Shown here: positions 5,562 to 34,530 of the stretch, piece after piece
Numbering within the stretch: position 1 is the first letter of the stretch
How the letters are laid out: each line of letters starts with the position of its first letter
NCBI GenBank assembly: GCA_023231475.1
Contig: JALJEE010000702.1
Location: forward strand, 1 to 36,178
Direction of reading: 5' to 3'
Length of the DNA stretch: 36,178 bases
From: Seison nebaliae
Lineage: Eukaryota
The notes under the pieces: model-generated
Told to the model about the DNA's origin: nothing
The model's database searches: none
Seen by the model: the letters and a program-made list of their open reading frames with translations, nothing else
Translations under genes and position numbers: made by a program

Positions 5562-7227
5562 ATGACTAAAGTTAAATTAGAACCACTCGGTCCTATCGAG
5601 GGGAAGAAGAAAATCAGCTCAATTAAAGCTCTTAGGATTCTAAATTTAATAACAGATACAATAAAGAATGTCAGGATTCTGGGATCAATTCATAACATTG
5701 TGAAAATTTATCGAGCAAAAAATTTAGAGACGAATAGGTCGTTAGACATCTTTTATCATTTTCTATTTCATTAATTATATTCTGTTCCAATATTTATAAT
5801 TAGCTTCTTCGATACCAAGATTGCAATAGATGTTGAAAATGAATTCATAGGAGCATTGGAAAAGTATGTGGAAGCTTCATTACAGATAGATGAATTTATG
5901 AATAATCCACAAGTTAATTTTTATCTCAACATATTTCGAATAATCCCCTAATGAAGAAAGATGTTGAACGTTTCAAGCATGTAGTTTTTGTGGAACATCT
6001 TTATGCTTTCGACGAAGAGTTAACATTTCTATATTCTTTTCAATTTTTTATTCATAAACTTATTGAATTTTTTTGCATTTTAAAAACAAAAAGTTCTTCC
6101 ATGAGAAGCAAGGTGGAAAAAATACCACAAATGTTTCTCGATCTGAAAGAGACGACGGGAGAAATTTGGAGACTCTTAAACCGTTACCCACAAATATATA
6201 CGAGTATTGATCTGATGGTTTCTGAGGTTGGTTGGGATTGTGATGAAAAGAGTACCGAAATTATCGGTAAGTTTCCATTTAGTTGATTTAAAAAAAGAAT
6301 GTTCGATATTTGTAGAAAGTTTGGAAGTGCTAAAAAAATATATGGAAGAAAGATTTGCCACAACACCAGCTGAAGATCGTGATCAAACAGATTTATTAAA
6401 AGAACTACAGAATAAGGAATTGCAAAATGATAAAACCATTAAACAATTGGAAGCTAATTTAGCGAAAGCAATGAATTATAGAAAAGATGAAATATCGAAA
6501 AGGAATGCAGAAATAACGAGATTACAGAATAACTTGCAACAGATTGAAAGAAACAGTACAGAGATGGTAAGACGATTAAAACTCGAAGCAGAGAGTCAAG
6601 AAGCGACTGATAATAAGAATAGCGAAGCTAGACGGTTCTTATAATTTCCCATATATTCTGTTTAACAAAATTATTAGATTGAAGTTACAAGAAGAATTGT
6701 CAAAATTGAAAGGAACATTCAAACAAGTTCGAACTGAAAATAGAATTGAAGAAGAAAAATTAAGGAAGGAAAAATGGAAAGAAGAAAATTCATTAGAAGA
6801 TTGGTTGAGAAAATTCGATAAAGATATGAATGAGAAACAAGTTTTCACTTTTAATCATTTGAACTAGATTCATTTTGGTGATGTATATCAGGGAAATCTT
6901 GACGAATTGGAAGCAGCTTATGAAGAAGAAAAGAAACAATTAGTCTTATTAGAAGAACGATTCCAACCGTTGGAACAAGAATATGAAAAAGTTACTTAAA
7001 GATATTATCATCATTCTCTTAAATTTTATTATTCTTAGATATTAAAAGATATAGAACGACGAGAAAATAAACGTTTACTCGATCTAGCTAACTTGGAGGA
7101 ACGAATTGCTGCTGCCGTCAAGATCCAAAGATGGGTTCGTCGTTTGAAACGGATGGGACTGTTTGGGAAAAAGAAGAAGAAAAAGAAGAAGAAGGGGAAA
7201 AAGGGTAAGAAAGGAAAGAAAAAGTGA
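5562..7227 (+). CDS. IQCD: Dynein regulatory complex subunit DRC10 / IQ domain-containing protein D
   Basis: Coiled coil KLRKEKWKEENSLEDWLRKFDKDMNEKQ..LDELEAAYEEEK, IQ motif AAVKIQRWVRR, Lys/Gly-rich tail, TGA at 7225-7227. Introns: 5741-5803, 5913-5956, 6019-6093, 6231-6282, 6635-6677, 6841-6891, 6991-7038 (all GTT..AG). Confidence 0.88.
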
Positions 7228-8035
7228 AAATATTTCACTATATTCCAAAAATTAACTAACTTCTACAATGAAATAAATTTTTTTTTAATAATCTCGAAAA
7301 TTCAAGTACGGAAAAGTAATTCTGATATATAATTCTATAAAATTATAATTTTCACTATTCACTTAATGGTAATGATTCAAATGATTCTATTATCTTCTAC
7401 AAGTATGTAAAGTTCATGCCATATTTATACAGTAATTTCTCAAGAAATAAAATTCTTTCCGGTTGAGAAAAAATGTATTGAATTGGTGTTGATCAAAATT
7501 TTAATGAAAACGGAAAAATAATTATGCAAGCAATTCTTTTATTAGATAATATACAATTTAAAAAAGAATAAGATGAAATGTGAAAATAATTAAGAAACCA
7601 TTTCAATATTTACGATATTTGGAATATATGAAATACAAAATGAAGATGAGTAAATTAATTAGTGAGATGTTTTTTTCTCTTGGAGATTTTCTCAATCAAT
7701 TTCTGGTGTAAAGAGTAATGTTATGAGATTTGATAGAGGATGATTTTGAATAAATTAGAAAAGTGATTGGAGATGATCGAAAGGAAAAAACATTCGTCAA
7801 CTAATCGAGTTGAATAATATGAAATGTGATAAAGAAAAGTTTTATCGCGAAGAAAATATGAAAAAGATAAATGGAAAATAAGTGATTGAAAAAAGAAAGT
7901 AGTTGTGAAAGGAAAAGAAATAATTAGGAGAAAAAAATTGAGATTAGAGGATCCGTATCTCTTGTTGAAAGATGAGGATTGATATTGTCGATTCTCAAAC
8001 TTGATCGAGAAAGTGGAGAGTATCAGTGAAAATAT

Positions 8036-31638: not shown

Positions 31639-33621
31639 TGAATGCACATTGGTCGTATAGAGAGAGGGAGATGGAGACTGGAAGAGAGAAATATTATATA
31701 TTTCCTTTTCTAAAGAAATACAAAGAATTATATATTTATATATAATTCTTTCTATATATATATCATTCATATCATATATGCCATACATTATGATTACATA
31801 TCATATATGGAATACTTGTAATAAATTTCGGATTATGTAAAATCGAATCATATCACTTCAAATTTCTTTATTTACATTATATTTCCCTCAATTTTATTTT
31901 AACAAAAGAAATTATAAAGATAAATAAATAGATATATTTATTCTTTACCCACTTTCTTCAACTGTACTTTCATGCATTAAATGTCAATTCTTTTTTAAAT
32001 GGCAAAAGTGAAAAGATTATTATTTGTTTTTTTTTTCTTCCCAAAATCAATTCCACCTTATAGCGATGTATTTATGTTCCCTAAATAAATAACTTGAAAC
32101 TAAATAATAATTGTATTGATGTGAAATGGAGATTAAGAAAACAGGAATAAATTAAATGAATTTCCTCTTGAATGAAAATTAATGGAAATTAACTATTCTA
32201 TTTAAGCATTTTCCAGTTGGGAGGAGTGCATGCACTTGGATGTAGTGTAAAAGTCAGATCTTGTTCACATAATTAACGGATGTTGAATAAGAAATAGCAT
32301 TTTTTTAAGAAGAGTTATCTTATCAAATATAATTCACTTTCTCTTTTGGAATTGAGAACGGGAAAAAAAATAAAAGTCGTGTTGGCACCATCTCAACATT
32401 GTGTCAATATTTCTCTTTGGTAATTATCTTTCAATTCAGTTATATAGCAATTTTCCGTCGATTTCCATTACAATAACGTATCGAACAATAATGAGTTTGA
32501 TTCAGCCAATTTGAAGATTCAACTCAATAAAATATGTACAGAGCCGGACATTCTATTTATCTATGAAGTGGCAAATGTTTATGAATAACATCCGTTAAAT
32601 TCCTAATCATTTCCAAACATGTTGATCGTCCATGTCTCCACTTTGTTACAATTTGTTTCAAATTACAATTTTAATAGTTTATTATCAAGGTCATTCTCGT
32701 ATGATAATTTCTCCTAATTGTCCAATTAACAAATGTGTCATTAATATTAATCAACTGATCAAATTAGTTATATGTCCAATTAAGAAAGATTTTCTAACAA
32801 TGCCAAACTGTTGAAAAAACTGAGGAACTAACTAATAAACATATGTCCATCCTACTAACTTGTTAATGAAAAGATAAATAGTTAAATAAATAAGTAAATT
32901 TTGAATGTCAATTTCCTGCCACATCTCTGGCACTGTACAAATGGATAAACTAACAAATTTCACAGATATCTATGTAGAAGCATGCCAAGGATTACGTGTT
33001 CGTATGTGAATGATTCATCGATTTCTTTCACATGAGAAGCTTAAAATTTAAAACGTGAAAAATTACAGAGATGGAAATTTATTGAGAATAAGACCAATCA
33101 AAGAATTTTACGTTAGAATAGTGTTGTTGTTGTTAAATATTCGAAAAGGATTTGATGTCATTTTCTTTTGTACTTTCAACTGAAACTTCAAGATTTACAT
33201 ATGTTCTTGTTGATAGATTTATTTGCATTTTCTTATGTCGCCTTTTGTTGTCAAACTGAATATTTATATGTTCTGTCCTTATTCAATTGTCTCTTCAATA
33301 TTTTGGATATATATTTGTCCTGTTGAATCATAAGGATTAAAGTATATGTTGGGCGTATTATCCAGTTATAATCTCCACATTTCGATTACTTTTCCTCTTT
33401 TCACATTTTACTCTTCCAGTACTTACTTGTTTGGCTCTTGTCGAATTGAAAATATAGAGGACATTAATTTTCAATTAATTATAAAACTATTTTCGACACG
33501 TTTCATTCAAATACGTTTACAAAATTTTTGTTTAATTTTCTCTTCCATATAGACAAATTTTAAGATAACGGAGGAGAATCTTCAGTCACATACAAATACT
33601 TCGAATAACAATCGCGTAGCA

Positions 33622-34530
33622 ATGGCTCACGAATAGTTTAATTTTTTAATTTCTTTTAAATCATCATGTCATTTATAAATATCATTGACGATGTTAGCGA
33701 TTACTTATTCAAATTGTTACTCATAGGTGATTCGGGTGTCGGCAAATCATGTCTATTATTGCGATTTTGTGTTAATTTTTTTTCTTATTAAACTTTCCAT
33801 TAATTTCTCGCTTTATACAGGACGACATATTTACCAGTAGTTACATCAGTACCATTGGTGTGGATTTCGTTAGATAAAATATTGTATTTGCTTAATAAAT
33901 TCTTTTTTTATCTAGAAAATAAGAACGTTAAATATTGATGACAAATCTGCAAAATTACAAATCGTTTATTTATTCCTTCGTCATAATATAACGTCTTAAT
34001 TTCATTCGACAGTGGGATACAGCTGGACAAGAAAGATTTCGAACAATTACCTCTTCCTATTATCGAGGCGCTCAAGGAATAATTATTGTGTACGATGTTA
34101 CGGACATGGTTAATCACTTTTAAGTCGTAGAAGATTTTTATGTGATTTTTGGTATAGGAAACGTTTAATAATGTGCGACAATGGTTGACGGAAATTGATC
34201 GATATGCAAGTGAAAATGTTCTGAAATTACTTGTTGGGAACAAGAGCGACTTGACAGATAAAAAGACTGTCGATCACGAAACAGCTAGCGTTAGATTTCT
34301 TTCACATTCTTTTTCTTAAAATATTCTTAAAATAGAAATATGCCGAACATCTACACATTCCATTCTTAGAAACAAGCGCAAAAGATTCGACGAATGTCGA
34401 ATTGGCGTTCTACCAAATGGCCGAAATGATCAAAGGAAAATATAAGCCAAATCCAACAGAAAACGCCTCAAATATTCAGCCATCAAATGATCAGGAAGAC
34501 GTACCAGTACCGGGTGGTTGTTGTAAGTGA
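33622..34530 (+). CDS. RAB1: Rab1/Ypt1 small GTPase (absent from the ORF track because its exons are short)
   Basis: [80 protein letters not shown], prenylation end GGCCK*. Introns: 33636-33697, 33771-33820, 33869-33915, 33964-34012, 34109-34157, 34290-34335. Confidence 0.95.

Follow-up and report, generated by a model that had tools for sequence, protein, structure and literature searches.

What becomes of intron recognition in an animal whose introns no longer begin with the usual motif, and what then reads their donors (5' splice sites)? Animal donors are mostly GURAG, and this motif and the 5' end of the U1 snRNA (small nuclear RNA), canonically AUACUUACCUG, belong to the most highly conserved features of gene expression in animals. 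The question is raised by contig JALJEE010000702.1 of Seison nebaliae, 36,178 nucleotides (nt) long and called the window below, in which an initial annotation had reported 38 coding introns in seven genes, all starting with GTT. Our analysis of these seven genes, all sampled on this one contig, supports the view that here is an animal with GUU donors close to fixation. There is T at position +3 in 37 of the 38 introns (exact 95% confidence interval 86–99.9%); the claim that every intron has it fails at a single intron of the IQCD gene, which is better read with a GTA donor. Seison, a tiny relative of the rotifers, is an epizoic marine syndermatan, with the acanthocephalans as its sister group (PMC12256650).

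Seven gene models were obtained in which excision of 38 GT–AG introns restores an open frame with one terminal stop. They encode IQCD (430 residues), Src (776), a TBATA/SPATIAL-like protein (450), DDX3 (675), PP4R3 (1533), a FAR-like protein (708) and Rab1 (201), and were named from the Pfam domains Ras, SH2, PK_Tyr_Ser-Thr, PP4R3, SPATIAL and NAD_binding_4 and from homologues. The long DDX3 exon is 100% identical to the S. nebaliae protein SNEBB_011499, and an IQCD exon matches SNEBB_011496. The first donor (5741) and the last acceptor (34335) are those of the initial annotation. Introns are found at a density of 38 per 14.3 kb of coding sequence, have lengths that are evenly spread over the three phases and measure 42–82 nt, with a median of 50 nt. 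All donors (GT or GC) and AG acceptors compatible with the frame were enumerated, junction by junction, for the whole set of 38.

The frequency of T at +3 was compared with backgrounds taken from the Seison contig itself. Of 618 exonic GT dinucleotides, 205 (33%) are followed by T, against which 37/38 has p = 4.8e-17; over the whole window the proportion is 40% (p = 3e-14). Intron interiors are richer still, with 52% T, a point in favour of the rival reading that there is no changed code and that the pattern comes from T-rich introns, from the analyst's choice of donor, from assembly error or from some peculiarity local to the contig. Even against 52% T, 37/38 has p = 4.5e-10, on which T-richness was rejected as the sole cause, and T is scarcer than expected at the adjacent positions +4 and +5.

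The choice of donor is another point in favour of such an artefact, since the junctions were all inferred from DNA and protein, and 20 of the 38 have a frame-compatible non-GTT candidate within about 45 nt (for example GTAATT at 24134 in PP4R3 intron 2), where only two such donors had been recognized previously. Three selections that take the analyst's choice out of the donor calls agree, nevertheless, with the reconstructed set. At 15 junctions just one GT donor is possible, and in every case it is GTT; a rule blind to +3 that chooses the intron poorest in G yields GTT in 37/38, and one that chooses the length nearest 50 yields it in 35/38. Among the rejected donor candidates, GTT is found in only 13 of 41. 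Independently of such rules, exact protein register fixes Rab1 introns 2–6 (2–4 jointly), Src introns 4 and 5 and PP4R3 introns 2, 4 and 5, and hidden Markov models (HMMs) built from 114 DDX3 and 149 IQCD homologues place the alternatives at least 14 bits lower at DDX3 introns 3–5 and IQCD intron 5. Proteins deposited at NCBI map to 11 GTT donors and one GTA donor (5/5 GTT in DDX3, 6/7 in IQCD).

Assembly error is opposed by the contigs of four DNA runs, which never deviate from the assembly's letters at the 21 donors that they cover (16,300–35,300); these runs represent at most two samples, possibly including the source of the assembly, and behave as DNA, with no splice joints. Published transcript-based gaps of S. 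nebaliae measure 42–92 nt with a median of 49 (supplement of PMC8351084; a hand count over the first 50 of 19,906 rows gave 32 distinct gaps), and the agreement of the inferred intron sizes with these gaps argues further against an artefact. On this evidence, we consider it quite improbable that there is no changed code, and the +3U pattern is probably a species-wide trait of Seison. In the second supplement of PMC8351084, several isoforms differ solely by one retained gap of 45–92 nt, a possible sign that introns are often retained in Seison. A term search of the available supplements of PMC8351084 and PMC10125929 found no Seison intron sequences, and a metagenome scan with a bdelloid DDX3 as query gave four loci (GC 44–62%), none recognizable as rotifer.

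The exception is IQCD intron 4. It had been stated that no intron needs a GTA or GTG donor, but NCBI protein P0121 maps here to g/GTAAGT with a TAG acceptor (6267..6315, + strand; the slash marks the exon–intron boundary). When the two disputed residues are masked, 99 of 124 homologues vote for GTA, 13 for GTT and 12 tie (25 gapped rows of 149 being excluded), and among 36 of the top 40 homologues the vote is 26 to 6, with 4 ties. The whole-protein HMM places the two readings only 0.5 bit apart; such scores also fail to separate the candidates at IQCD introns 1–3 and at PP4R3 intron 3. The alternative A/GTTTCC...AAG (6271–6319) was rejected as the main reading on the NCBI annotation and the homologue vote, and intron 4 is probably a canonical G/GTAAGT...TAG survivor, although both forms could be made. 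The segment 6267–6319 carries tandem donors (GTAAGT and GTTTCC) and tandem acceptors (TAG and AAG), each pair 4 nt apart, giving two proteins of equal length that differ by two residues. It could be a site caught midway between the old and the new donor codes. One further candidate, the GTAATT donor at 24134 in PP4R3 intron 2 (three more residues), was rejected by the register of Pfam PF04802.

The remaining donor positions are not free. Position +4, which had been called variable, has 19 A, 14 T, 5 C and no G; A is enriched over the intron background (19 versus 11, p = 0.0065), and T (14/38 versus 19.6 expected) shows no preference for +4U. At +5 there is G in 12 introns versus 1.7 expected (p = 6e-8) and a depletion of T (4 versus 19.6 expected); a purine is present in 29/38, and A occupies 17 of the 26 sites without G (p = 3e-4). 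Positions +6 to +8 are at intron background, with +6G in 1/38. On the exon side, -1G is at background (10 versus 7.5 expected) and -1A is found in 16/38 versus 13.5 expected overall. The counts of +5G and -1G are those reported initially, but are obtained only with the GTA donor at IQCD intron 4.

The bases -1A and +5G are mutually exclusive: -1A occurs in 0 of the 12 introns with +5G and in 16 of the 26 without (9.3 expected in the latter class; Fisher p = 2.8e-4). This pair is the best of all exon–intron base pairs scanned (family-wise permutation p = 0.004), and the exclusion persists in the 20 better-supported introns (0/6 versus 7/14). The idea that donor identity had collapsed onto GUU has to be modified in this respect, as +5G, +5A, +4A and -1A all carry signal, distributed over two exclusive classes.

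The acceptors are YAG in 32/38 and AAG in 6/38, with no GAG; the YAG acceptors are preceded by a T-rich stretch, as in U2-type introns. The purine at +3 of U2-type donors (GURAG) is present in 1/38 only, and the U12-type donor, RTATCCTT, in 0/38. The branch-point motif YTRAY shows no excess (16/38 versus 16.9 in shuffles). ZMAT5 is scored missing in Seison and in the acanthocephalans (BUSCO table of PMC12256650).

What, then, reads +3U? The predicted duplex with canonical U1 is -1.96 kcal/mol for the GTT donors, -1.40 for random GTT sites and -9.3 for the lone GTA donor. Canonical U1 thus does hardly better on these donors than on random GTT sites, which implies some change in recognition. With the usual U1 pairing gone and a new base near-fixed, a positive reader of +3U appears to be needed. 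The compensatory change in U1, U6 or a protein proposed in the initial annotation is upheld to this extent; its simplest form, an A at U1 position 6 in the normal register, leaves the loss of -1G and the gain of -1A and +5A unexplained. When GTT is held fixed, residual U1 pairing lies above the null with z = 4.1 in a register shifted by +1 and z = 2.4 in the normal register.

The explanation that we tentatively prefer, and to which we give somewhat less than an even chance, is that near-fixed GUU is likely genome-wide and is caused by a rewritten U1 5' end with A facing +3, the slipped form being slightly favoured. U1 would go on recognizing the donor, one of its A residues lying opposite +3. 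Either U1 position 6 would have changed in the normal register, or pairing would run one base further into the intron, placing A7 on +3, U10 on -1, position 6 on +4 and position 5 on +5, and an additional change of the C8-to-A type would close the mismatch at +2. The second option would fit the remaining bases somewhat better: the +1 register covers -1A, +3U, +4A and the +5 purine, whereas the normal register with A at position 6 covers +3U, +4A and +5G, but not -1A or +5A. The donor would then be passed to U6 and U5 in normal register. Either the U6 ACAGA box would hold it through +5G, or the U-rich U5 loop 1, or else U1, would hold it through an exon ending in A. These two ways of securing the donor would give rise to the two exclusive classes, and a donor without +3U would persist only with a perfect match elsewhere. 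We regard as doubtful a stronger version, in which an intron-rich animal has exchanged the donor code of its entire major spliceosome: the rewritten U1 would read A/GUU one base out of step by default, U6 would not be methylated and the universal see-saw between -1G and +5G would have become one between -1A and +5G. In Entamoeba, the only published lineage with +3U, the facing positions of U1 carry A, and Mastigamoeba has a different U1 change (bioRxiv 10.1101/2022.06.08.495308).

The shifted register could also be used by a U1 that has not changed at all. In rare human donors U1 pairs in the +1 register (PMC4856993), and if this pairing were used genome-wide in Seison, the existing A7 would read +3U; +3U, the -1A of the class without +5G, +4A and the +5 purine would be explained without mutation, in keeping with the z of 4.1. 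However, +6G, whose mutation abolishes the shifted duplex in melting data (PMC4856993), is present in only 1/38, -2C is not enriched and canonical U1 is predicted to form duplexes close to those of the null. We consider this reading improbable.

The main rival, though still less likely than not, is that the snRNAs are unchanged and that it is the U6/U5 step, or a protein, which selects +3U, U1 pairing having little weight and A-ending exons being held by U5 loop 1. In the U6 variant, loss of METTL16 would leave the U6 ACAGA helix unmethylated and favour a U(+3)–G44 wobble; in the protein variant, altered contacts of U1C, LUC7, PRP8 or SNRNP40 would read +3. Of 25 syndermatans, S. nebaliae is the only one for which METTL16 (BUSCO 363851at33208) is scored missing, and SNRNP40 is so scored in Seison and one bdelloid (supplement of PMC12256650). 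In addition, both donor classes have +3U fixed, the outcome expected of a cause in the catalytic core; in Fritillaria the methylation of U6 and U1 is altered and the U1 sequence is not (PMC13326754); and GUUUGU is able to pair better with U6 according to Roy and Bowser (bioRxiv 10.1101/2022.06.08.495308). The missing call for METTL16 is weak, however, because Seison is scored as lacking about 40% of all BUSCOs, and it alone lacks 76 of the 954. Moreover, the published mark of METTL16 loss is +4U (PMC10581693), whereas here +4T is below expectation and +4A is enriched, and this +4 test rejects METTL16 loss as a sufficient cause. SNRNP27 is complete in Seison (BUSCO table of PMC12256650), and yeasts without METTL16 keep +3A (GUAUGU; bioRxiv 10.1101/2022.06.08.495308). 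Other splicing-related BUSCOs scored missing in Seison are Gemin2 and, also in both acanthocephalans, snurportin-1 and ZMAT5 (PMC12256650). The missing splicing BUSCOs could come in part from gene finders failing on GTT donors.

Several observations weigh against a rewritten U1 and its extension to the genome. The genome-wide claim, although likely, is extrapolated from seven genes on one contig, where about 12 donors rest on frame alone (those of the TBATA-like gene, FAR-like introns 1–3, IQCD introns 1 and 3, Src intron 1 and PP4R3 intron 3). At PP4R3 intron 3, the score of a rival GTG donor (24843) is 6.8 bits better in a comparison with the only four, distant, homologues that the search provided, among which the Seison protein itself did not appear; this GTG reading would widen a gap to the Pfam profile. 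The difference between the +1 and the normal register is not significant (p = 0.14), the +6G predicted by the +1 register is as good as absent, and the statistics of the -1A/+5G classes are post hoc with n = 38. The Rfam search of the window found a tRNA only, and no gene for U1, U5 or U6. Elsewhere, Saccharomycotina, Thecamonas and Micromonas have atypical donors (at +4) with an unchanged U1 (bioRxiv 10.1101/2022.06.08.495308), and the tunicate Fritillaria keeps its U1 5' end despite non-canonical introns (PMC13326754).

The IQCD gene is on the + strand, and all its introns map to NCBI protein P0121, intron 1 exactly. Intron 1 (5741..5803, c/GTTAGA) has a GTC alternative at 5738, and homologues are undecided there as at intron 3 (6019..6093, a/GTTAAC, AAG acceptor); intron 2 (5913..5956, a/GTTAAT, AAG acceptor) has a single donor. 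At intron 5 (6635..6677, g/GTTCTT) the next candidate is 15.5 bits lower, and single candidates exist for introns 6 (6841..6891, a/GTTTTC) and 7 (6991..7038, a/GTTACT). In Src (- strand), intron 1 (9637..9686, a/GTTCTT) is placed by frame only, on its sole GT donor. Intron 2 (9446..9513, g/GTTAGA, AAG acceptor) also has a sole donor, and its 3' exon aligns to the Src family from residue 2. Intron 3 (9178..9224, a/GTTTAT) lies at most one residue from the Src register, and the register is exact at introns 4 (8913..8963, g/GTTAGT, AAG acceptor; chain 9bt8_C) and 5 (8703..8746, g/GTTTCC; PF07714).

The TBATA/SPATIAL-like gene (- strand) was named by PF15256. Its introns 1 (13277..13318, a/GTTTAA), 2 (13053..13107, a/GTTAAT, AAG acceptor) and 4 (12566..12611, g/GTTTAT) are placed by frame only; intron 3 (12694..12738, g/GTTAAA) has a single candidate and intron 5 (12384..12432, t/GTTTAA) a sole donor. 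The five introns of DDX3 (- strand) map to NCBI protein P0001: intron 1 (18709..18757, t/GTTAGT) by a unique exact map and intron 2 (18450..18499, a/GTTTCC) as a single candidate, while at introns 3 (17954..18013, t/GTTTAT) and 5 (17022..17078, g/GTTTGT) the GTA alternatives are 19 and 31 bits lower, and at intron 4 (17299..17350, a/GTTCTT) the next candidate is 37 bits lower.

In PP4R3 (+ strand), introns 1 (23429..23486, a/GTTTAT) and 6 (25458..25507, a/GTTAAA) have single candidates. Exact register with PF04802 is found at introns 2 (24125..24202, a/GTTAAA, also the top HMM score), 4 (25020..25066, c/GTTTGA) and 5 (25226..25278, t/GTTACT), and the provisional intron 3 (24863..24913, t/GTTCGT, AAG acceptor) is the choice of both blind rules. 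The FAR-like gene (- strand), named by PF07993, has three introns placed by frame only: intron 1 (29890..29936, a/GTTAAT), intron 2 (29624..29669, g/GTTTGG), where a GTA candidate at 29702 would cost 11 residues, and intron 3 (29021..29102, t/GTTAGT), the least certain of the gene; intron 4 (28831..28886, a/GTTCCT) has a single candidate. The six intron positions of Rab1 (+ strand) are presumably ancestral. Intron 1 (33636..33697, a/GTTTAA) has a single candidate; introns 2 (33771..33820, t/GTTAAT), 3 (33869..33915, c/GTTAGA) and 4 (33964..34012, c/GTTTAT) are fixed jointly by exact PF00071 register, as are individually intron 5 (34109..34157, g/GTTAAT; also Rab1A chain 9rx4_E) and intron 6 (34290..34335, c/GTTAGA).

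The tRNA of the window is a tRNA-Phe (GAA) at 1804–1878 on the + strand. The contig starts with seven copies of a GGTTAAC-containing unit spaced by 24–48 nt (31–240), and an intronless open reading frame of about 620 codons without a Pfam match lies at 3363–5231 (- strand). The region 13640–14400, upstream of the TBATA-like gene, contains minus-strand pieces resembling exons and introns that could not be joined into a gene. A short multi-copy element is located at 27922–27992, with a summed depth of 207–444 versus 15–30 around it. At 35500–36100 (- strand), outside the 38 introns, there are open stretches broken by stops that appear leucine-rich by eye, the longest without a Pfam match.

A literature search that covered few subscription journals found neither GUU donors in Seison nor a near-fixed +3U in any animal. 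To our knowledge, the known rewrites of the donor are in protists, mostly intron-poor ones. If our reading is true, thousands of donors have turned to GUU in an animal, a naturally occurring test of what determines donor identity, be it U1, U6 or proteins; it would also show how an snRNA and its many targets change together, and bear on the origin of the -1G preference. The sister groups with genomes (acanthocephalans, bdelloids and monogononts) keep METTL16, so that the change is datable. In Seison, some genes may escape gene finders and BUSCO runs that are set up for GURAG donors.

By analogy, the Seison donors would work like those of Entamoeba, with a different motif. Entamoeba, with GUUUGU(U) and a co-evolved U1 ACAAAC, resembles Seison in its near-fixed +3U, its major-class introns and its AT-rich genome (bioRxiv 10.1101/2022.06.08.495308); however, it is intron-poor and its motif is rigid (GUUUGN in 96.9–98.5%), whereas in Seison GTTTGN is found in 3/38, +4 is mostly A and there are two donor classes. 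The A/GUU of Seison with A at +4 and +5 would fit the same out-of-step pairing as the shifted human donors, but these are rare and depend on +6G (PMC4856993), whereas in Seison GUU is the rule and +6G the exception. As in the U5-class (AG//GU) and U6-class (//GURAG) donors (PMC11732430), the strength of the exon end and +5G compensate for each other; in Seison an A takes the place of G on the exon side, and +3U is present in both classes. In Saccharomycotina, +4A changed to +4U after loss of METTL16/SNRNP27K (PMC10581693); METTL16 is likewise scored missing in Seison (PMC12256650), but the Seison change is at +3, +4A is still enriched and SNRNP27 is complete. Fritillaria borealis (PMC13326754), finally, is an animal in which recognition of the 5' splice site has been re-tuned and N6-methyladenosine in U6 is low; its intron ends have relaxed from GT–AG with U1 unchanged, whereas Seison has kept GT–AG and fixed a new base.

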